From Saccharofermentanales bacterium (lineage in GTDB: Bacteria; Bacillota; Clostridia; Saccharofermentanales; DTU023), in assembly GCA_050945515.1 (NCBI GenBank), contig JBMNTB010000008.1, forward strand, positions 1,665 to 65,664: DNA of 64,000 nt, read 5' to 3'. The position numbers and the translations under genes were made by a program. Below are positions 4,973 through 13,774 of this stretch, one piece after another; the first letter of the stretch is position 1, and each line of letters begins with the position of its first letter. The notes under the pieces were generated by a model. The model had not been told where the DNA came from and did no database searches. It was given only the letters and a program-made list of their open reading frames with translations.

Positions 4973-5022
4973 TGAATTTAAATACAAAAAGGGTTGACAT
5001 TTGATAACTCCAAACTGATAAT
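4973..5022 (+). promoter_or_regulatory. sigmaA promoter of argG with adjacent ARG box
   Basis: TTGACA (4994-4999)-N17-GATAAT (5017-5022). TGAAT-TTAA-ATACA (4973-4986) resembles the ArgR/AhrC box. Confidence 0.65.
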
Positions 5023-5062
5023 GGCTGATACGAGATTAAAAGCTGTTACAGGAGTCATCTAT

Positions 5063-6310
5063 ATGTCAGTTAAAGAGATAAAAAAGATTGTTCTCGCTTA
5101 TTCAGGCGGGCTTGATACGTCCGTTATTATTCCTTGGTTAAAGGAGAACTATGAAGGCTGCGAAGTTATCGCAGTTTCATTTGACGTCGGGCAGGGATCG
5201 GAATTAGACGGCTTGGAAGAGAAAGCCATTAAAACTGGTGCATCAAAACTGTACATTGAGGACATGCGCCAAGAATTCATTACAGATTATATCTTCCCCA
5301 CATTGAAGGCCGGTGCACGCTATGAGCGTACTTACCTGCTCGGAACGTCGTTTGCGCGTCCTTGTATCACCAAACGGCTTGTCGATATCGCTAAACGGGA
5401 ACAAGCTGACGCCATTGCTCACGGTTGCACCGGTAAAGGCAACGATCAGGTTCGTTTTGAGCTGACGATCAAGGCGTTTGCTCCGGATATGAAGATTATT
5501 GCTCCTTGGCGTATTTGGGATATTAAATCGCGGGATGAGGAGATTGATTACGCCGAAGCAAATAACATTCCGTTAAAAATTAATCGCGGAACGAACTATT
5601 CCAAGGACAAGAATCTCTGGCACTTGTCACATGAGGGTATGGATCTTGAAGATCCCAGCTCAGAGCCTATGTACGACAAGCTGGGTTTTCTTGAGATGTG
5701 TGTGACACCGGAAGCTGCGCCTGATGAGCCGGTATACGTAACGATCGGTTTTGAGCAGGGTGTGCCCGTACGCATCGACGGTCAGGAACTTGATGCCGTC
5801 TCGCTCATTGAGGAGTTGAACAGATTGGGCGGTGCCCATGCAATCGGGTTATTAGATCTCGTAGAGAATCGCTTAGTCGGCATGAAGTCTCGTGGTATTT
5901 ACGAGACACCGGCCGGTACGATACTCTACCATGCACACGATGTCTTGGAGACCTTAACGCTTGATCGCGATACCCAACATTATAAGGAGATGATAGCGAT
6001 TCGTTTTGCCGAACTGGTTTACGACGGCAAGTGGTTCACACCGCTGCGCGAGGCGCTCTCAGCTTTCGTTGACGAGACGCAGAAGACCTGCACCGGTGAG
6101 GTAAAGCTCAAGCTCTACAAAGGCAACATTATCAATGCCGGTGTGACGTCGCCTTATTCACTCTACGATGAAGAAACCGCGACGTTCAATGAAGATGAGG
6201 TCTATAACCAAAAGGATGCCGAAGGCTTTATCAACTTGTTCGGTCTTCCGCTCAAGATGCGAGCCAAGATGTTGGATAAAGTGCAAGGCGGGGAGGATAA
6301 CCTTGGCTGA
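5063..6310 (+). CDS. argG: Argininosuccinate synthase
   Basis: [23 protein letters not shown] and [16 protein letters not shown] motifs. ATG 5063 follows AGGAG. Confidence 0.96.
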
Positions 6311-7718
6311 TCTTTGGAAGGGACGATTTAGCGGTGAGCTCGCTAAGCTGGCGCGGGACTTTAACCAGTCGCTGCATATTGATGGTCGGATGATTGCGGA
6401 AGATATCAAGGGTTCACTTGCTCACGTTGCCATGCTGGGGCGACAGGGAATTATAACGGAGCAGTCCGCTCAGCGAATCGAAGCCGGTCTGCTGTCCATC
6501 CTCAACGACTACACGGCCGGCTGTTTGGAACCTGATCAAGCGGCAGAAGACGTTCATACCCTGGTTGAAGGCGAATTGACGCGGAGAATCGGCGATGACG
6601 GGAAACGTTTGCATACGGCACGCAGCCGCAACGATCAAGTTGCGCTCGATTTTAGACTTTATGCAGAAGGTGAAGCCAAGACGATTCATAAATTATTGAC
6701 GCAGTTTATTGAGAAGTTGACTGATCTGGCCGAAACATACGCCGAAACCATTATGCCGGGCTACACACATCTTCAGCGCGCTCAACCGATCACCTTTGGG
6801 CATCATTTGCTGGCGTATGCGGCGATGTTCCTGCGTGACTGTGGGCGAATCCGAGATGCTGTCTCGCGCATGATGGCTGAATCGCCGCTCGGTGCCTGTG
6901 CGTTGGCCGGTACGACCTACCCTACAGATCGCCGGGAACCCGCTCAGATACTCGGTTTCACTGGCGTTGCTGCAAACAGTATGGACGCTGTTGCTGATCG
7001 TGATTTTGCTGTTGAGCTGACGGCGGCTCTTTCCATCATCATGATGCATCTCTCACGTTTAGCTGAAGAGGTAATTCTCTGGTGTTCGCAGGAATTTCGG
7101 TTTTTAGAGCTTGACGATGCTTACGCCACGGGTTCAAGTATTATGCCACAGAAAAAAAATCCCGACATTGCAGAGCTTGTGCGCGGAAAAACAGGACGGG
7201 TCTACGGTGATCTGATCACCTTGTTAACCTTGCTGAAAGGCCTGCCACTGGCGTATAACAAGGATATGCAGGAAGATAAGGAAGCTTTCTTTGATGCTTG
7301 TGATACCGTCAAGATTTGTCTCGAACTGTTTCCGCCGATGCTCGTGACAGCTCAGATCAACAGTCAAGAGATGCGCCGGGCGGCTGCAGACGGCTTGCTC
7401 AACGCAACAGATTGTGCCGATTATCTGGTGCGCAAAGGTGTACCGTTCCGGGAAGCATATCAAGCTACCGGAGCGCTCGTCGCCCGTTGCCTAACAGATC
7501 ATACGACACTGGAGCATTTGCCGCTGACTGTTTACCAATCTGTTCATCCGGCGTTTGCACAGGATATATACCAGGTCGTCGATCTTGATCGCTGTGTAAC
7601 GGAGCGAAATTCCGAAGGCGGAACTGCGCCGGAATCTGTCAGGAAGCAAATCGCTGCAATTCGCGAGCGGTTAGCGAATGAACCGTATGTGGAGCGTACA
7701 CACAAGTTCGACGTATAA
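6303..7718 (+). CDS. argH: Argininosuccinate lyase
   Basis: LWKGRF N-terminus, [17 protein letters not shown] and [15 protein letters not shown] start at 6303 follows GGGAGG and overlaps the argG stop. Confidence 0.95.
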
Positions 7719-7947: not shown

Positions 7948-8877
7948 ATGAAACATCTGCTTAAGCTATCGGATCTGACAACGGAGGAGATCAGAGATAT
8001 CCTCAACTTTGGTGATCAATTAAAATATGAGCGCAAGCACGGCATCAAGCATAAACATCTCAAGGATAAATCCCTAGGCATGATTTTTCAGAAAGCGTCA
8101 ACCCGTACGCGCGTATCGTTTGAGGCCGGAATGTTCCAGCTCGGAGGACAAGCCCTCTTTTTGTCTAGCCGCGATCTACAGATCGGGCGTAGCGAACCGA
8201 TTCAGGATACGGCTCGTGTGCTCTCACGCTACTTGGACATTATCATGATCCGAACTTTCGCCCAACAGGAAGTTGATGATCTGGCGGCCTACAGCCAAGT
8301 GCCTGTCATTAATGGCTTAACAGATTATGCTCACCCCTGTCAGGTGCTAGCGGATCTGATGACGATTCGTGAGATCAAGGGTAGTCTGGAGGGTCTAAAA
8401 CTCTGTTTTGTCGGTGATGGCAACAACGTGATGAACTCACTGATCGTCGGCTGTTTGAAGATGGGTATGTCGGTCGCTGTTGCTTGTCCTTCAGGTTACG
8501 AACCTGATGCTGAGATCCGCGCTTGGGCGGAGACGAGCGGACGCTTTTCGTTACAGGAGGATGTTTTCGCTGCCGCAGAACATGCCGATGTGCTCTACAC
8601 GGATGTCTGGGCATCCATGGGCATGGAAGATGAGATTAAAGAGCGCCAGAAGGCGTTCCGTTACTATCAGATCAATCAGCAAGTGATGGATGTGGCGGCG
8701 AACGATGCGATAGTCTTGCACTGCCTGCCGGCACATCGCGAAGAAGAAATTACGACAGAAGTCTTAGAGGCTCATGCCCACGAGATTTTTGAACAGTCGG
8801 AAAATCGTCTGCATGTCCAGAAAGCTGTAATGGTGCGATTACTATGCGGACCTTGTAAAGAGTCAAGTGTACTTTAG
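7948..8877 (+). CDS. argF: Ornithine carbamoyltransferase
   Basis: STRTR, HPCQ, DVWASMG and HCLP motifs. Confidence 0.95.
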   Translation: MKHLLKLSDLTTEEIRDILNFGDQLKYERKHGIKHKHLKDKSLGMIFQKASTRTRVSFEAGMFQLGGQALFLSSRDLQIGRSEPIQDTARVLSRYLDIIMIRTFAQQEVDDLAAYSQVPVINGLTDYAHPCQVLADLMTIREIKGSLEGLKLCFVGDGNNVMNSLIVGCLKMGMSVAVACPSGYEPDAEIRAWAETSGRFSLQEDVFAAAEHADVLYTDVWASMGMEDEIKERQKAFRYYQINQQVMDVAANDAIVLHCLPAHREEEITTEVLEAHAHEIFEQSENRLHVQKAVMVRLLCGPCKESSVL

Positions 8878-8895
8878 CTCTGTACAAAAATGACC

Positions 8896-8924
8896 TTGAC
8901 AATTTCTTTTTTCGCGCATAGAAT
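8896..8924 (+). promoter_or_regulatory. sigmaA promoter of the leader/ABC transporter operon
   Basis: TTGACA (8896-8901)-N17-TAGAAT (8919-8924). Confidence 0.8.
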
Positions 8925-8959
8925 CAATCCATGTTATTGAGAACGGAGAAAGTGCAAAG

Positions 8960-9040
8960 ATGAGACAAGTCACGGATATGCGTTTCAACGTCTACTATTA
9001 TTACGGCAAGGTGGTTCGTTGTTGCGCTTTCCGCAAATAA
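8960..9040 (+). CDS. Tyr-rich leader peptide MRQVTDMRFNVYYYYGKVVRCCAFRK (attenuator)
   Basis: GGAGA (8945-8949) precedes ATG 8960. TAC TAT TAT TAC at 8993-9004, TAA at 9038-9040. Not in the supplied ORF track (too short). Confidence 0.75.
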   Translation: MRQVTDMRFNVYYYYGKVVRCCAFRK

Positions 9041-9067
9041 CGCATATTTGCGTATGACAAAGCCGAT

Positions 9068-9107
9068 AACGTCCACCAAATCTACAGACAGGTGGACGTT
9101 TTTATTT
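9068..9107 (+). terminator. Attenuator intrinsic terminator in the 5' leader
   Basis: 10-bp stem AACGTCCACC (9068-9077) / GGTGGACGTT (9091-9100), followed by TTTATTT, upstream of the first ABC gene. Confidence 0.8.
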
Positions 9108-9144
9108 GCAAATTCATTAATTATCTGTATTGGAGGTATAAAAA

Positions 9145-10173
9145 ATGAAAAGCAAGAAGATCATAAGCCTATTGTTAGCAGTCCTTCTCCTGATGTCGCT
9201 TGCGGCGTGCGGAAGCAAGGACGGCAGCAAGGACACAGGTGTAGCTGAGCCGGATGAAGGGTCAAAGGAGCCGATAAAAATTGGTATCATGCAGTTTGGA
9301 GAATTTGACGCCCTTCTGAACGCAAGCGAAGGCTTTAAAGCAGGGCTTGCGGAAGCAGGCTTTATCGAAGGCGAGAACGTGGTATTCAACTATCTCTCCG
9401 CTGCAGCGGATACCTCAAACTGCCCGACCATAGCGGACAGCCTCATCAACGACGGCAGTGACCTCATCTTCGCAATTGCAACCCCGAGCGTGCTCTGCCT
9501 GAAGGAAAAGACCACTACTATTCCCGTCATATTCTCCGCGGTCACCGATCCCGTGCAGTCCGGCCTCATTGCGGATTACGATGCCCCCGGCGGGAACATC
9601 TCGGGCGCCTCGGATATGAATCCCGTTAAAGAGCAAATAGACTTCCTTCTCGAGTTGCTCCCGGAAACGAAGACCATAGCCGTATTCTACTCCTCAAGCG
9701 AGTCCAACTCTCGCATCCAGTACGAAATGGCGAAGAGTCACATCGAAGGAAAAGGCCTCACCTGCGTACAGAAAACCATATCAGCGGTCGATGAAGCCAA
9801 GTCCGCCATCGAGTCCCTTAAGGGTCAGGTTGACGCCATCTACATTCCGACCGACAATACAGTGTCGGATGCGATGCAGATAGTTTCCACGGCGGCCCAT
9901 GATTGCGGAATCCCGACTTTCGGCGCAGAGCCTGCAATGGTTGCAAACGGAGCCTTTGCAAGCTATGGTGTGAACTACTTCGAGCTCGGTAAGCAGAGCG
10001 CCGCCATGGCGGTAAAGGTGTTGCAGTCGGGCGATCCTCTCGCTGAAGTTGCCAAGATGCCCGTAGTATACCAAACCGAAAACCTTACGACAGCCATCAA
10101 TGCCACCGCCGCGGAAAAGCTCGGCATAGAAATTTCTCAAGAGATACTCGATTCGGCTGAAGTAATCAAGTAG
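9145..10173 (+). CDS. ABC transporter substrate-binding lipoprotein (ABC_sub_bind/TrpX-like; probably aromatic amino acid, Tyr)
   Basis: Lipobox LAAC. AIATP, AVTDPV, GGNISGASD and PTDNT motifs are typical of the family. GGAGG RBS. Confidence 0.85.
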   Translation: MKSKKIISLLLAVLLLMSLAACGSKDGSKDTGVAEPDEGSKEPIKIGIMQFGEFDALLNASEGFKAGLAEAGFIEGENVVFNYLSAAADTSNCPTIADSLINDGSDLIFAIATPSVLCLKEKTTTIPVIFSAVTDPVQSGLIADYDAPGGNISGASDMNPVKEQIDFLLELLPETKTIAVFYSSSESNSRIQYEMAKSHIEGKGLTCVQKTISAVDEAKSAIESLKGQVDAIYIPTDNTVSDAMQIVSTAAHDCGIPTFGAEPAMVANGAFASYGVNYFELGKQSAAMAVKVLQSGDPLAEVAKMPVVYQTENLTTAINATAAEKLGIEISQEILDSAEVIK

Positions 10174-10191
10174 TCAAGGAGTTATATTTGC

Positions 10192-11124
10192 ATGTCATTA
10201 GCTACCATACAAAGCGGCGTTGCACAGGGCGTAATGTGGGCGGTCCTCACCCTGGGGATCTACCTTACGTTCCGTACTCTCGAGATTGCCGACCTCACCG
10301 TAGAGGGAACCTTTCCCCTCGGTGCGGCTGTCACGGTTGTGCTCATCAATGCCGGAGTCCATCCGATCGTCGCAGCCACTGCGGCCTTCATCTCCGGCAT
10401 GTGCGCAGGTCTTGTAAGCGGGGTACTCATCACCGCATTCAAGATCCCCCCCATACTTTCGGGGATACTGACCCAGATAGCCCTCTATTCCGTAAATATA
10501 CGGATAATGAGTGACAGAGCAACGGTCTCGATAGTCGGGACTTCATTCAAGAATATTATTACGACTTTGTTCCCCGACGGTACTGCGCCGAACACCGTAT
10601 CCATCTGCGTAGGCTTTGCCATATCCGCGCTGCTGGTCGCCATACTCTATATGTTCTTCGGCACCGAGATCGGTTGCGCGATAAGGGCTACCGGAAATAA
10701 TCGCCATATGGCGCGGGCTCTTGGTATAAACACCGACTGGACCACAATCCTCTGTCTCATGATTTCAAACGGGCTGGTCGCTCTTTCCGGCAACCTCATC
10801 GCCCAGTTCGATTACGGCTCGGCGCTCGTGAACATGGGACAGGGAACGATCGTCATCGGTCTCGCCTCGATAATAATCGGGGAGGTGCTCTTCCTGAGGA
10901 AGGAGCACAACTTCGCCTACATACTGTCCGCGATTGTCCTGGGCTCGGTGATATACAGGACCATAATAGCTGCCGCGCTCACGATTCCCTGGATGAAGGC
11001 GACGGACCTCAAGCTTATCACGGCAGTCATCGTCGCCATTGCGCTTGCCCTCCCGGTCCTCAAGGGGAAGGCCGCCTTTTTCAGGAAAGCCGGAAACGGG
11101 AATAAGGAGGCACAAGATGCTTAA
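10192..11124 (+). CDS. ABC transporter permease
   Basis: Multi-TM; ADLTVEGTFPLGAA, IRATGNN and GLASIIIGE motifs. TTG start after AAGGAG. Confidence 0.88.
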   Translation: MSLATIQSGVAQGVMWAVLTLGIYLTFRTLEIADLTVEGTFPLGAAVTVVLINAGVHPIVAATAAFISGMCAGLVSGVLITAFKIPPILSGILTQIALYSVNIRIMSDRATVSIVGTSFKNIITTLFPDGTAPNTVSICVGFAISALLVAILYMFFGTEIGCAIRATGNNRHMARALGINTDWTTILCLMISNGLVALSGNLIAQFDYGSALVNMGQGTIVIGLASIIIGEVLFLRKEHNFAYILSAIVLGSVIYRTIIAAALTIPWMKATDLKLITAVIVAIALALPVLKGKAAFFRKAGNGNKEAQDA

Positions 11125-11911
11125 GATTGAGAATCTTAGAAAGACCTTCGATCCCGGCACGGTGAACGAGAAGACGCTATTCACGGATTTAAACCTTGAG
11201 GTAGCTGAGGGTGAATTCGTGACCGTAATAGGCTCGAACGGAGCAGGAAAATCGACGATGCTGAGCCTTGTTGCAGGCTCGATGATGCCGGACTCGGGGC
11301 GCATAAGCCTCGGCGTCAGGGATATAACCTATATGCCGGAGTTCAAGCGTGCCGCTTTCATAGGACGGGTCTTTCAGGATCCCATGATGGGTACGGCGGC
11401 GAAGATGTGGATAGAGGAGAACCTCGCCCTCGCCTACCGGCGCGCCAAGCCCAAGACGCTAAAATGGGGTCTCCCGCAGTCTGACGAGGAGATGTATAAG
11501 GAACAGCTAGCAAGCCTCGGTCTCGGGCTCGAGGATCGGCTCAAGACAAAGGTTGGCCTGCTTTCAGGTGGACAGAGACAGGCGCTAACTCTTCTCATGG
11601 CTACCATACGCCGCCCTGAGCTCCTCCTCCTCGACGAGCACACGGCAGCGCTTGACCCGAAGACCGCTCAGACCGTTCTTCAACTGAGCGACAAGATAGT
11701 ACGGGAAAACAAGCTCACGACCCTGATGGTTACCCACAACATGAGAAATGCCATCGAGTATGGAAACCGCCTCGTCATGATGCACGAGGGGGGCATAATC
11801 CTCGATATCTCAGGTGAGGAGAAAAAGGCTCTCACGGTTGAGGCGTTACTCCAGAAGTTCGAGCAGGCGTCCGGCTCCTCCGATGTATCGGATGCCGCAA
11901 TCCTCAGCTAA
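11117..11911 (+). CDS. ABC transporter ATP-binding protein
   Basis: Walker A GSNGAGKS, signature LSGGQRQ, Walker B LLLLDEH. ATG 11117 follows AAGGAGG. Confidence 0.92.
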   Translation: MLKIENLRKTFDPGTVNEKTLFTDLNLEVAEGEFVTVIGSNGAGKSTMLSLVAGSMMPDSGRISLGVRDITYMPEFKRAAFIGRVFQDPMMGTAAKMWIEENLALAYRRAKPKTLKWGLPQSDEEMYKEQLASLGLGLEDRLKTKVGLLSGGQRQALTLLMATIRRPELLLLDEHTAALDPKTAQTVLQLSDKIVRENKLTTLMVTHNMRNAIEYGNRLVMMHEGGIILDISGEEKKALTVEALLQKFEQASGSSDVSDAAILS

Positions 11912-11935
11912 AATTCAAAAGCCGGTGTAAACACT

Positions 11936-11971
11936 AAAAAGTGCGCTCTGGAATAAACAGGGCGCATTTTT
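11936..11971 (+). terminator. Intrinsic terminator of the ABC operon
   Basis: AAAAAGTGCGCTCTG / CAGGGCGCATTTTT hairpin directly after the stop codon. Confidence 0.75.
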
Positions 11972-12253
11972 ATGGGATCACTACATATTATCTTACTTAA
12001 TTTAATTAAATACCGAGCGACTAGATTACTGAAATTGTTTTATGAAACCGGAACGGTTTCCGAAATGAACACAGACCGTATCCCGGCACAGTTAGTCAGC
12101 TTCATCAGCATGAATGTGTCGAGTTAGGGTAGTGTATTTATATTATAGAATAGTTTTTGTACAGCATAACCGATGTAAGCACTGTTTCGTAATTAATATT
12201 ACAGAAACGTACTTGACCTGATAGTAAATTGTTAAATAAAAGGAGAATTAACA

Positions 12254-13774
12254 ATGGCTTATTCACCAAAATTATCATCTGCATTTAATGATACGTATCT
12301 TAGAAGCAATCATATTTCACCACAATCCGGTATGTGTTCATTTTGCACCGAAGAATGTGAGGGAACATGTGAAATTGCTTTAGCATCTGTTTTAGGACAG
12401 CAGACTGTTTACCCAACAAATACTGGAAATAATCAAGTTGCTTCAGAGAAGAATTATCCAATTGATTTTTCGCACTTTAATATTAATGGACGTGTGTTTG
12501 GAGCTGTTGGAGCCAACCCTAACTATGAAGATGCCAACATATATCATGTAAAATTGGAAAGAGAATATGGAAAATTTAATCCCGTAAAATTATCGATGCC
12601 TATCATTTTACCTGCTCTTATTAAGTTGAATTGGAAAGATTATTTTGGCGGAGCAGCTATGGCAGGGGTAACATGTGTGATTGGAGAGGAAGCCAGAGAC
12701 AAGGATCCTGATCTACAGATTGAAAATGGCAAGGTTGTTGAGTTTCCAGCTTTAAAGAGTATGCTTGATTCTTTCCGTAAATATTATCGCGGATATGGAC
12801 AGATTGTATTGCAGTGCAATGTTGAGGATGATATGTTGGGTATTCCTGAATATGCAATAAAAGAGCATAATTTAGAAGCTTTAGAATTTAAATTTGGTCA
12901 AAGCGCAAAAGGCACACAACCGGTTCACAAATTAAAAGACAGGGAGGAAGCACTCAAAAAGCGGGAAATTGGAATATTAGTATTCCCGGATCCTATGGAT
13001 CCTGAGATTATTAGAAAAGCTGAAAAAGAAATTTGCCCTAATTTTTATTCATATAGCAGGTTGCCATTATGGGATGAGGAGTATTTAATCCCAAGAATTG
13101 AGGGATTAAGAAAAATGGGAGTAAAAAATATCTATCTAAAAATGGCCGGCTATGATAGAGAGGATTTAGAGAGAGTAATCAGGATTGGAAGCGAAGCGCA
13201 AGTAGACATGATTACCTTTGATGGTGCAGGCGGAGGAAGCGGATATAGTCCATGCAAGATGATGAATGAGTGGAGCCTGCCTACGATACTCCTGGAAGAA
13301 TCTGTTTGTAAAATAGTTGAAAAGTTAAAAGCTGAAGGCCGATATATCCCGGCTGTAACAATTACCGGTGGATTTAGTTCTGAAGACCAAGTGTTTAAGG
13401 CACTTGCATTTGGAAATCAGAATGTAACATCCATAGGATTATGCCGTGCTTCTATGACAGCCGCGATGACTGGTAAGAATATTGGAGAAAGAATAAAAAA
13501 AGGTGATGTTCCTAAGAATCTGAAGACATATGGAACTACTGTAAATGAAATATATTATGATCTTGCTGATTTGAGATCAATATATGACAAAAAAGCAGAT
13601 GAGTTTTCTTTAGGTGCTGTTGGAGTATTTTCGTATTTAAATAAAATTGCCTTTGGATTAAAACACTTCGCAGCATTAAATCGTAAATTTGATGTTTCAT
13701 ATCTAAATAGGAGTGATTTGATACCTTTAACTCATGATGCAAAAGACCTTATTAAAGGAAGATGGTTTGAATAG
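12254..13774 (+). CDS. FMN-binding glutamate synthase family protein (stand-alone)
   Basis: N-terminal CxxCxxxCxxxC cluster; EFKFGQSAKG and TFDGAGGGSG are typical of the GltS FMN domain. AAGGAG RBS. AT-rich. Confidence 0.8.
   Translation: MAYSPKLSSAFNDTYLRSNHISPQSGMCSFCTEECEGTCEIALASVLGQQTVYPTNTGNNQVASEKNYPIDFSHFNINGRVFGAVGANPNYEDANIYHVKLEREYGKFNPVKLSMPIILPALIKLNWKDYFGGAAMAGVTCVIGEEARDKDPDLQIENGKVVEFPALKSMLDSFRKYYRGYGQIVLQCNVEDDMLGIPEYAIKEHNLEALEFKFGQSAKGTQPVHKLKDREEALKKREIGILVFPDPMDPEIIRKAEKEICPNFYSYSRLPLWDEEYLIPRIEGLRKMGVKNIYLKMAGYDREDLERVIRIGSEAQVDMITFDGAGGGSGYSPCKMMNEWSLPTILLEESVCKIVEKLKAEGRYIPAVTITGGFSSEDQVFKALAFGNQNVTSIGLCRASMTAAMTGKNIGERIKKGDVPKNLKTYGTTVNEIYYDLADLRSIYDKKADEFSLGAVGVFSYLNKIAFGLKHFAALNRKFDVSYLNRSDLIPLTHDAKDLIKGRWFE

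Follow-up and report, generated by a model that had tools for sequence, protein, structure and literature searches.

A putative tyrosine-sensing leader-peptide attenuator ahead of a PF04392 ABC importer operon in Clostridia

Introduction

The leader-peptide attenuators of Escherichia coli (trpL, pheL/pheA, pheST and hisL) combine a short translated open reading frame (ORF) carrying a run of the sensed codon with an intrinsic terminator and an antiterminator that overlaps it and forms or not according to the position of the ribosome. We describe here an element of the same build, about 180 nt long, in a stretch of 64,000 nucleotides from a Saccharofermentanales bacterium (assembly GCA_050945515.1, contig JBMNTB010000008.1, positions 1,665 to 65,664 of the forward strand; hereafter the window, to which all coordinates refer). 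It lies directly upstream of the operon of an ATP-binding cassette (ABC) importer, and its leader ORF contains four consecutive Tyr codons. We consider it likely, from its sequence and that of its relatives, that this element attenuates transcription by way of the ribosome in response to Tyr-tRNA, and that it thereby controls an importer of aromatic amino acids, probably of tyrosine. It differs from the E. coli attenuators by its Tyr codons, by its association with an uptake system instead of a biosynthetic operon or a synthetase, by its Clostridia host and by the absence of any Rfam leader match; as in the classical attenuators, termination would be the default in the absence of translation.

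The general scheme of leader-peptide attenuation has been summarised elsewhere (PMC9413887, PMC11802643), and several described or predicted leaders come close to the present one. The aroR leader, located 5' of aroF in Corynebacterium glutamicum, encodes Phe-Tyr-Phe and, as stated in a review, responds to Phe limitation and not to Tyr (PMC11802643). Like the window leader, it is a leader-peptide attenuator that contains a Tyr codon and serves aromatic amino-acid metabolism; however, it has a single Tyr codon and belongs to biosynthesis in an actinobacterium, whereas the window leader has four consecutive Tyr codons and its relatives up to six. Attenuators with 3-5 His codons, which sense histidine and control his biosynthesis operons, have been predicted by comparative genomics in Firmicutes, namely in the Bacillus cereus group, Peptostreptococcaceae and Erysipelotrichales (PMC9413887). 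Leader-peptide attenuators had thus already been predicted in Clostridia, which tempers one side claim of the original prediction for this locus, a note made from the DNA letters: it had held that a classical attenuator would be unusual there. Finally, uORFC-8-2 before cysS and uORFC-13-1 before aroF (Acholeplasma) have been proposed to be ribosome-mediated attenuators (PMC8632094); they too are short ORFs with codons for the relevant amino acid adjoining terminator stems, but they sense Cys or Phe, in other lineages and before other genes.

Importers of aromatic amino acids of the PF04392 family can also be led by a T-box, as exemplified by Streptococcus suis trpX (PMC9382623). Such importers share with the present one the transporter family, the tRNA-charging signal and the control by a terminator. 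The window leader, by contrast, is devoid of Stem I, specifier loop and T-box sequence, and would read tRNA charging indirectly, via the speed of the ribosome. Our search of the open-access literature returned no tyrosine-responsive leader-peptide attenuator, and none before a PF04392 importer; subscription journals and supplementary tables were outside its scope, so that an earlier listing is possible. The element would fill a gap: leader-peptide attenuation is textbook matter, a Tyr-responsive case was not found in the open-access literature searched, and the present one appears conserved in a clade of importer operons among Clostridia.

Results

Architecture of the leader

The leader comprises the following elements, all on the + strand.

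8896..8924, +, putative sigma-70-type promoter: TTGACA at 8896-8901, 17-nt spacer, TAGAAT at 8919-8924
8945..8949, +, Shine-Dalgarno (SD) sequence GGAGA of the leader ORF, 10 nt 5' of the ATG
8960..9040, +, leader ORF of 26 codons plus TAA, with ATG at 8960 and stop codon at 9038-9040; product MRQVTDMRFNVYYYYGKVVRCCAFRK
8993..9004, +, putative regulatory codons TAC TAT TAT TAC, four consecutive Tyr, as read from the sequence
9010..9024, +, antiterminator 5' arm, GGTGG TT CGTTGTTG, within the 3' half of the leader ORF (predicted by folding)
9026..9063, +, inner stem-loop of the antiterminator, including the hairpin GCAAATA/TATTTGC that spans the stop codon (predicted by folding)
9064..9077, +, antiterminator 3' arm, overlapping the terminator 5' arm 9068-9077 (predicted by folding)
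9068..9108, +, intrinsic terminator with a 10-bp stem (9068-9077/9091-9100), a 13-nt loop and a T run at 9099-9107 (predicted by folding)

The promoter agrees with the consensus at 11 of 12 positions and is the best promoter-like site, and the sole one with 11/12, that a promoter scan found in 8500-12500; the transcript is predicted to start near 8931. The orthologous loci have their own TTGAC..TA..AT promoter before each leader, and an SD-like motif precedes the chosen leader ORF at 26 of the 28 loci analysed. In addition to the Tyr run, MRQVTDMRFNVYYYYGKVVRCCAFRK contains single Phe codons three residues before YYYY and near the end of the ORF. The terminator pairs AACGTCCACC (9068-9077) with GGTGGACGTT (9091-9100) ahead of the T run, with an energy of -16.6 kcal/mol; it was not listed by a simple terminator scan because its 13-nt loop exceeds the limit of 8 used in that scan. 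In the antiterminator, 9010-9014 pairs with 9073-9077 and 9017-9024 with 9064-9071, around the inner hairpin over 9026-9063. Since the antiterminator 3' arm overlaps the terminator 5' arm, the two structures are mutually exclusive. Promoter, ribosome-binding site (RBS), 26-codon Tyr ORF, terminator and antiterminator are thus all present where the original prediction had placed them.

In the trp attenuator the second segment follows the stop codon of the leader ORF. The antiterminator 5' arm of the window leader lies instead inside the ORF, 14-28 nt before the stop codon and 5 nt after the last Tyr codon.

By eye, a TTTAGCTCT-like motif is visible ~15-25 nt 5' of the -35 box in the window (8866-8895) and at loci L033, L034 and L151 (L and G numbers designate loci and genomes of the comparison); in the window it is flanked by TGTAC and GTACA, which form an inverted repeat with 5-nt arms. 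Other subgroups (L036, L040, L043, L119) have, again by eye, a CGCTTTA motif inside the promoter spacer. Either motif may be an operator or an UP-like element.

The attenuator would work as follows. Transcription would start from the promoter at 8896-8924, and a ribosome would load on the 26-codon leader ORF. When tyrosine is plentiful, the ribosome would pass the four Tyr codons and reach the stop codon at 9038-9040; at this end of the ORF it would occlude the antiterminator 5' arm (9010-9024) together with the inner hairpin, so that the terminator (9068-9100 and U tract) would form and transcription would halt before the importer genes. When Tyr-tRNA is scarce, the ribosome would stall at the first Tyr codons and leave 9010 onward free; this stretch would pair with 9060-9077 once the latter is transcribed and sequester the terminator 5' arm, and RNA polymerase would continue into the genes for the binding protein, the permease and the ATPase. 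If the ORF were not translated at all, the terminator would form by default.

Folding of the leader at successive ribosome positions

To mimic the ribosome, we assumed a footprint that places its leading edge 13 nt beyond the first nucleotide of the codon in the A site. Without a ribosome, the minimum free energy (MFE) fold (-46.7 kcal/mol) contains the full terminator, the GGUGGUUCGUUGUUG segment being held by upstream leader sequence. With the A site on Tyr codon 1 or 2, the MFE fold (-33.3 kcal/mol) contains the antiterminator and the terminator is absent. When Tyr codon 3 or 4 occupies the A site, the ribosome covers GGUGG and a 7-bp terminator remnant is left, minus the three pairs adjoining the U tract. 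A ribosome on the stop codon leaves the terminator as the only structure (-16.6 kcal/mol). The alternation that the original prediction required, i.e. the antiterminator with a stall on the Tyr run and the terminator with a ribosome at the stop codon, was therefore reproduced for a stall on Tyr codons 1-2.

The antiterminator alone has an energy of -29.5 kcal/mol, compared to a mean of -14.2 for shuffled sequences (z = -5.3). Over 9009-9108, a fold in which the terminator is forced reaches -29.0 kcal/mol as against -33.3 for the antiterminator fold, a gap that indicates a modest preference at equilibrium. Which of the two forms would be decided by the order of transcription of their arms.

The Tyr-rich leader is conserved in one clade of importers

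We scanned the binding protein of the importer against 185,579 species genomes; a metagenome scan added 39 loci. In the species genomes a single locus is nearly identical (L034, 95%); a further group of relatives lies at 57-66%, after which identity drops to 45% or less. The 57-66% group consists of metagenome-assembled genomes labelled Eubacteriaceae, Anaerofustis stercorihominis, Oscillospiraceae/Ruminococcaceae, Anaerovoracaceae and unclassified Clostridia. At each locus with at least 250 nt of upstream sequence (a requirement that excluded six loci from the set at 52-100% binding-protein identity and three from the set at 36-45%), we looked for an SD-preceded ATG ORF of 8-45 aa with at least three Tyr in seven residues, followed by a hairpin and a T run before the gene. 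Such a leader was found at 39 of the 46 loci at 52-100% identity, a set that includes the window and near-duplicates (40 of 46 if a mixed Tyr/Phe leader is counted), and at none of the 62 homologues at 36-45%.

The 39 leaders encode 21 distinct peptides of 16-28 aa with 3-6 Tyr, the Tyr residues being common to all (MRYYVGGYFGYYYGTVDRCCTSRK, MKNRFYFYYYYFRDAAKRCTADTL, MKRRFFYYYYYYFSPAVECCAANI, MFANRYYYYYYTCAMECFTPAFSK, MLNRNNHRANYYYYYGFNN and MYYGFYYYRRFTNYNCIR are examples). Outside the Tyr cluster the peptides vary in length and sequence, except that one subgroup also keeps the stretch encoded by the RNA arm, and close pairs of leaders differ mainly by amino-acid replacements (Q3R and V11I between the window and genome G003). 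The variation of the peptides outside the Tyr run and the RNA arm, together with these replacements in close pairs, points to selection on the codons and the RNA and not on the peptide. The Tyr codons, whose lack of conservation would have spoken against the original prediction, are thus kept in the orthologous leaders while the remainder of the peptide varies.

The Tyr-run ORF is also singular within the genome. On both strands of its 1,935,795 bases (55 contigs), we searched for SD-preceded ATG ORFs of 10-40 aa with three identical residues running: a run of at least three Tyr occurs in exactly one such ORF, the leader ORF at 8960-9040, compared to 105 ORFs with Leu runs, 79 with Ser runs and 53 with Arg runs. 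This uniqueness, combined with the recurrence of the leader at 39 of 46 orthologous loci and at 0 of 62 distant ones, excludes a chance occurrence.

A search for further members of a regulon was negative: the pattern TAYTAYTAYTAY gave 42 matches in five leader-bearing genomes and, among the 30 that were fetched, only the importer leader was an RBS-preceded short ORF with a terminator. A degenerate core pattern matched in 1 of 400 other genomes of the class, and this single match is probably due to chance since a reversed-pattern control matched in about ten genomes.

A quick maximum-likelihood tree was built from 54 binding proteins, among them 19 rows sampled from the 55-100% group, 15 with a leader. 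These 19 form a single clade (SH-aLRT support, from the Shimodaira-Hasegawa-like approximate likelihood ratio test, of 100), while the relatives that bear a T-box and a paralogue from the same genome as the window (see below) fall into other clades. The four leader-less rows are nested inside the leader clade, which suggests that they are later losses. Leader DNA is found in only two of the eight genomes of the window's genus; this patchiness, together with the spread over several families, fits a transfer of the operon along with its leader.

Conservation of the two RNA structures

In a MAFFT alignment of 15 leaders, 89.4% of the cells of the terminator are paired and five of its ten pairs are changed on both sides; its covariation score was reached by none of 500 shuffles. 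The terminator is therefore supported by covariation. In the same alignment, 79.6% of the cells of the antiterminator are paired, as against 28-72% when the partner is slid. An alignment fitted with a covariance model (R1), which leans to the structure by construction, gives 81.5% paired cells, with five cells in four pairs changed on both sides; in the first search with R1, two weak reverse-strand matches (L038, L037) appeared and were excluded by means of a stricter E-value.

As an alignment-free test, we computed for 17 representatives the energy of the duplex between the ORF segment that follows the Tyr codons and the 5' arm of the leader's own terminator. The shuffle p was 0.05 or less in 11 of the 17, including the window (-18.1 kcal/mol, z = -3.9). 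The leaders' own pairings also beat permuted ones in all 20000 permutations, a figure that is inflated by sequence kinship. The subgroups that give no signal in this test have a longer spacer (27-51 nt) between the stop codon and the terminator; in L042 at least, the pairing partner of the terminator is an arm immediately 3' of the stop codon, a layout closer to that of trp.

Observations that weigh against the attenuator

A number of observations weigh against attenuation by tyrosine as described above, and most of them concern the antiterminator. In the MAFFT alignment its covariation score is at the mean of the shuffles, 236 of 500 of which reached it, and in the R1 alignment the covariation score was reached by 53 of 500 shuffles, the number of both-side changes by 41 of 500, and a slide by +3 columns still pairs 77.6% of the cells. 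RNAalifold, applied to a shorter MAFFT alignment that begins at the last Tyr codon and ends with the 5' arm of the terminator, returned no consensus pair, several rows of this alignment being visibly misaligned at the 3' arm. In the duplex test, L148 gave p = 0.07 and L042, L125, L127, L128 and L134 gave no signal. What the alignments display for the antiterminator is hence the conservation of two complementary arms, not compensatory change. Moreover, the 5' arm, whose sequence (9010-9024) is conserved across the core group of leaders, also encodes V-[VD]-R-C-C in a fixed frame in this group, which makes a constraint on the peptide inseparable from one on the RNA. As regards geometry, only 5 nt separate the last Tyr codon from the antiterminator arm, and a ribosome on Tyr codon 3 or 4 covers GGUGG. 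Among the 46 orthologous loci, L036, L040, L044, L122, L123 and L150 are leader-less, and several of the orthologous leaders mix Phe and Tyr (FYFYYYYF, FFYYYYYYF, YAYYFYF, AFSYIFYF, YSYRYFF). Lastly, what the analysis shows directly is the set of sequence elements with their conservation, the two competing folds and the family to which the importer is related; translation of the leader ORF, stalling of ribosomes on its Tyr codons, a response of the switch to tyrosine and a tyrosine cargo are inferred from these.

The leader-less loci take several forms. In L036 and L044 the promoter is followed by the terminator, in L040, L122 and L123 it is followed by the RBS, and in L126/L150 only MKKQK precedes the terminator. 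L044 resembles L124 with the ORF deleted and the terminator kept, and L119, L036 and L040, which share a promoter type, have leader and terminator, terminator only, and neither, respectively. That L036 and L044 keep promoter and terminator without a leader ORF would be understandable if the terminator were leaky, or controlled without translation of the ORF, by a protein or small RNA acting on the leader or by a repressor at the promoter, the ORF being a bystander. The weak covariation of the antiterminator and the conserved TTTAGCTCT-like motif 5' of the -35 box, which could be an operator, also favor this explanation. It is nevertheless very improbable, given that SD, ATG and 3-6 Tyr codons are kept through 21 peptides, at 39 of 46 loci as against 0 of 62 distant ones, and that such an ORF occurs only once in the genome.

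The recurrence of the C-terminal residues V-[VD]-R-C-C, with at least one Cys and in a fixed frame across the core group, raises another alternative, namely that the short ORF encodes a functional peptide, either a TnaC-like sensor of free tyrosine or a secreted or modified peptide rich in Tyr and Cys. A conserved sequence such as a TnaC-like nascent peptide calls for was not found among the 21 peptides, in which only the Tyr run and, in one subgroup, the RNA-arm stretch recur. In addition, the length (16-28 aa), the N-terminus and the C-terminal tail vary, the tails of different subgroups being unrelated (FTKDNCIR, GFNN); the conserved residues are precisely those encoded by the RNA arm complementary to the terminator; and the neighbours are arg genes and the importer, with no modification or export genes adjoining. 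We regard a functional peptide as a shade less probable still than a bystander ORF. Attenuation by a ribosome on the Tyr codons remains the reading that we favor.

The leader matches no Rfam family

None of 4227 Rfam covariance models matched 8880-9150 at E <= 10, or the leader in the scan of the window at the gathering score. A T-box was considered and rejected: the T-box model (RF00230) gave no match in 8880-9150 at E <= 10, while the same model finds four sites elsewhere in the genome. The search against Rfam proposed along with the original prediction therefore leaves the leader neither a T-box nor a member of any Rfam family. Taken with the conserved Tyr codons and the position-dependent folds, this lends support to the core of that prediction, a trp/his/phe-type attenuator reading Tyr-tRNA before an importer of the CD0873 family.

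Genomic context of the leader

The leader is followed by the three genes of the importer.

9145..10173, +, lipoprotein substrate-binding protein of the ABC importer, PF04392 (ABC_sub_bind), Pfam E = 1.8e-74
10192..11124, +, ABC permease (BPD_transp_2), by Pfam
11117..11911, +, ABC ATPase; AAGGAGG precedes the ATG at 11117, which shares its frame with the ORF listed at 11039-11911
11941..11973, +, hairpin and T run ending the operon, seen by eye and unscored by any tool

The ATG at 11117 is the likely start of the ATPase. Upstream of the leader are the genes for argininosuccinate synthase, argininosuccinate lyase and ornithine carbamoyltransferase, the last of which ends at 8877. The ORFs for the synthase (4994-6310) and the lyase (6168-7718) overlap by 143 nt as listed, and the lyase probably starts at a later start codon.

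As the leader begins only 19 nt after the stop codon of ornithine carbamoyltransferase, it might be thought to be a chance ORF beside the ordinary terminator of the arg operon. The leader has, however, its own near-consensus promoter and is conserved across families of Clostridia. Furthermore, in G003, a genome of the same genus, the leader (91% identical) still precedes the importer although the upstream neighbour differs, and contigs from three RNA libraries, derived from a related strain 95-99% alike, all diverge from the window at 8849, close to where the ornithine carbamoyltransferase gene ends, and share one unrelated sequence beyond that point. Being kept with the importer despite a changed upstream neighbour, the leader goes with the importer rather than with the arg genes, and the leader-importer unit, judged from these sequences, occupies different genomic places in close relatives. 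The chance ORF, whose probability we consider negligible, is thus refuted by the comparison with G003, by the uniqueness of the ORF in the genome and by the contrast between 39 of 46 and 0 of 62 loci.

Among the RNA contigs of this relative (95-99% alike), one from run X2 extends over 9050-9772 and thereby crosses the terminator and enters the gene for the binding protein. These RNA data are assembled contigs only, uninformative on starts, ends and levels, and DNA may be present in the libraries; that no RNA contig covers 8884-9011 carries no evidential weight.

Cargo of the importer

The best match of the binding protein in the PDB is 6hni (E = 3.4e-54), which is CD0873 of Clostridioides difficile, followed by 3lft (6.1e-49) and 3lkv (1.8e-47). 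CD0873, the nearest solved relative of the window protein, is reported to bind tyrosine, as the original prediction had stated, and the KD is given as 94 uM (PMC6816091). According to the same report, the ligands of the binding proteins CD0873, SP1069 and VC_1101 are Tyr, Trp and Phe, and the selectivity of CD0873 is attributed to Glu-263 and Tyr-279, which are replaced by Ala and Gln in the Phe- and Trp-binding relatives (PMC6816091). The window protein has Glu-262 and Tyr-278 at these positions, and the pair is invariant in 13 of 13 orthologues.

We nonetheless rejected the Glu/Tyr pair as proof of a tyrosine cargo, the pair being also invariant in five homologues preceded by T-boxes, including Phe and Trp T-boxes, which is a further point against our assignment. 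A T-box lies directly upstream of the binding-protein gene at 5 of the 40 relatives' loci scanned. T-box specifiers are read by the rule GAA-codon-purine; the specifiers so read are UUC (L048, L064), UGG (L020, L023) and UAC (L054). The PF04392 transporter family thus appears, from these leaders, to be repeatedly tied to aromatic amino-acid tRNAs. The original prediction had this family usually under T-box control: T-boxes do occur, but only at these 5 loci of 40. It had also taken the leader to predict the substrate, and here the Tyr codons and the family membership speak for tyrosine, while the pocket residues do not discriminate. The Tyr codons of the leader would hence be the main argument for tyrosine as cargo.

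The main alternative to a tyrosine-specific system is the same attenuator tuned to aromatic amino acids generally (Tyr and Phe), before an importer that takes more than one of them. The orthologous leaders often mix Phe and Tyr codons, a paralogous importer of the same genome has a leader with FNFFCY, the pocket residues fail to separate Tyr-, Phe- and Trp-linked relatives, and the genome has no matches for enzymes of Phe or Tyr biosynthesis. By contrast, the run of the window leader is pure Tyr (YYYY), Tyr is the residue common to all 39 positive leaders, and the fact that the paralogue has a Phe-rich leader of its own suggests that the two importers divide the work between them. We therefore consider such a broader tuning unlikely, though less so than the other alternatives, and retain an attenuator that senses Tyr-tRNA.

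The biosynthesis enzymes searched for were prephenate dehydrogenase, chorismate synthase and prephenate dehydratase: none had a match in the genome, which is 92.3% complete, whereas 14 of 14 control genomes matched each. It is plausible, although the genome is incomplete, that the host is unable to make tyrosine and depends on its import.

Other candidate tRNA-sensing leaders in the same genome

The paralogous PF04392 gene (G000 contig C2:110032-110901) encodes a protein 36% identical to the window binding protein. Its upstream region contains a promoter-like sequence and the ORF MRQRSSNFNFFCYLRRRL with an RBS, as well as a strong terminator; the ORF, which contains FNFFCY, lies at C2 ~111209-111265 on the minus strand (L004:2678-2734, minus). 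Aromatic-rich ORFs are also found before the orthologues of this paralogue in G001, G003, G002 (MLQFSGSFYFYFCYLRRRL) and G014 (MTANTRTGYYYFFSFRARS). Equilibrium folds of the paralogue's leader retained the terminator at every ribosome position tried, and no switch was derived.

The Rfam T-box model finds four T-boxes in the genome, none of them at the leader. One (L152, G000:C10:21523-21774, minus), whose specifier we read as UAC (Tyr), lies before a Beta_elim_lyase gene (tyrosine phenol-lyase/tryptophanase family), and another (L153, G000:C11:3906-4166, minus), with a specifier read as UGG (Trp), precedes a PALP enzyme resembling tryptophan synthase beta; the other two precede the genes for threonyl-tRNA synthetase and for a threonine-dehydratase-like protein. 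The cell would thus appear to read tRNA-Tyr in two ways at two loci, by a T-box and by a leader attenuator. The lyase and PALP genes linked to T-boxes, together with the absent matches for the aromatic pathway, hint that Tyr and Trp may be salvaged, with phenol and indole as the sources.

Discussion

On balance, and with some reserve, we incline to see in the window leader the first member to be recognised of an undescribed RNA class, a Tyr-sensing leader-peptide attenuator that travels with a tyrosine ABC importer in Clostridia of gut, rumen and digester, and that does the job performed by Tyr, Phe and Trp T-boxes in sister lineages. Taken along with the Phe/Tyr-rich leader of the paralogue, it suggests a wider, overlooked set of aromatic-codon attenuators for uptake in bacteria unable to make these amino acids. 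A conserved Tyr-run leader also provides a prediction of cargo from sequence alone where the pocket residues hide specificity. Should its response be confirmed, the element, which is self-contained, could be used as a genetic part that responds to tyrosine.

If true, the presence of a Tyr T-box and of a Tyr leader in the same genome would offer a natural comparison of two sensors of tRNA charging, for one amino acid and in one cell. Within the transporter family, the charging of tRNA would be read either by a T-box or by a translating ribosome, which makes this family a case for the replacement of one regulatory device by another. As for the host, an uncultured bacterium of biogas fermenters that apparently has no aromatic amino-acid synthesis, the leader points to a route by which it may be supplied with tyrosine.

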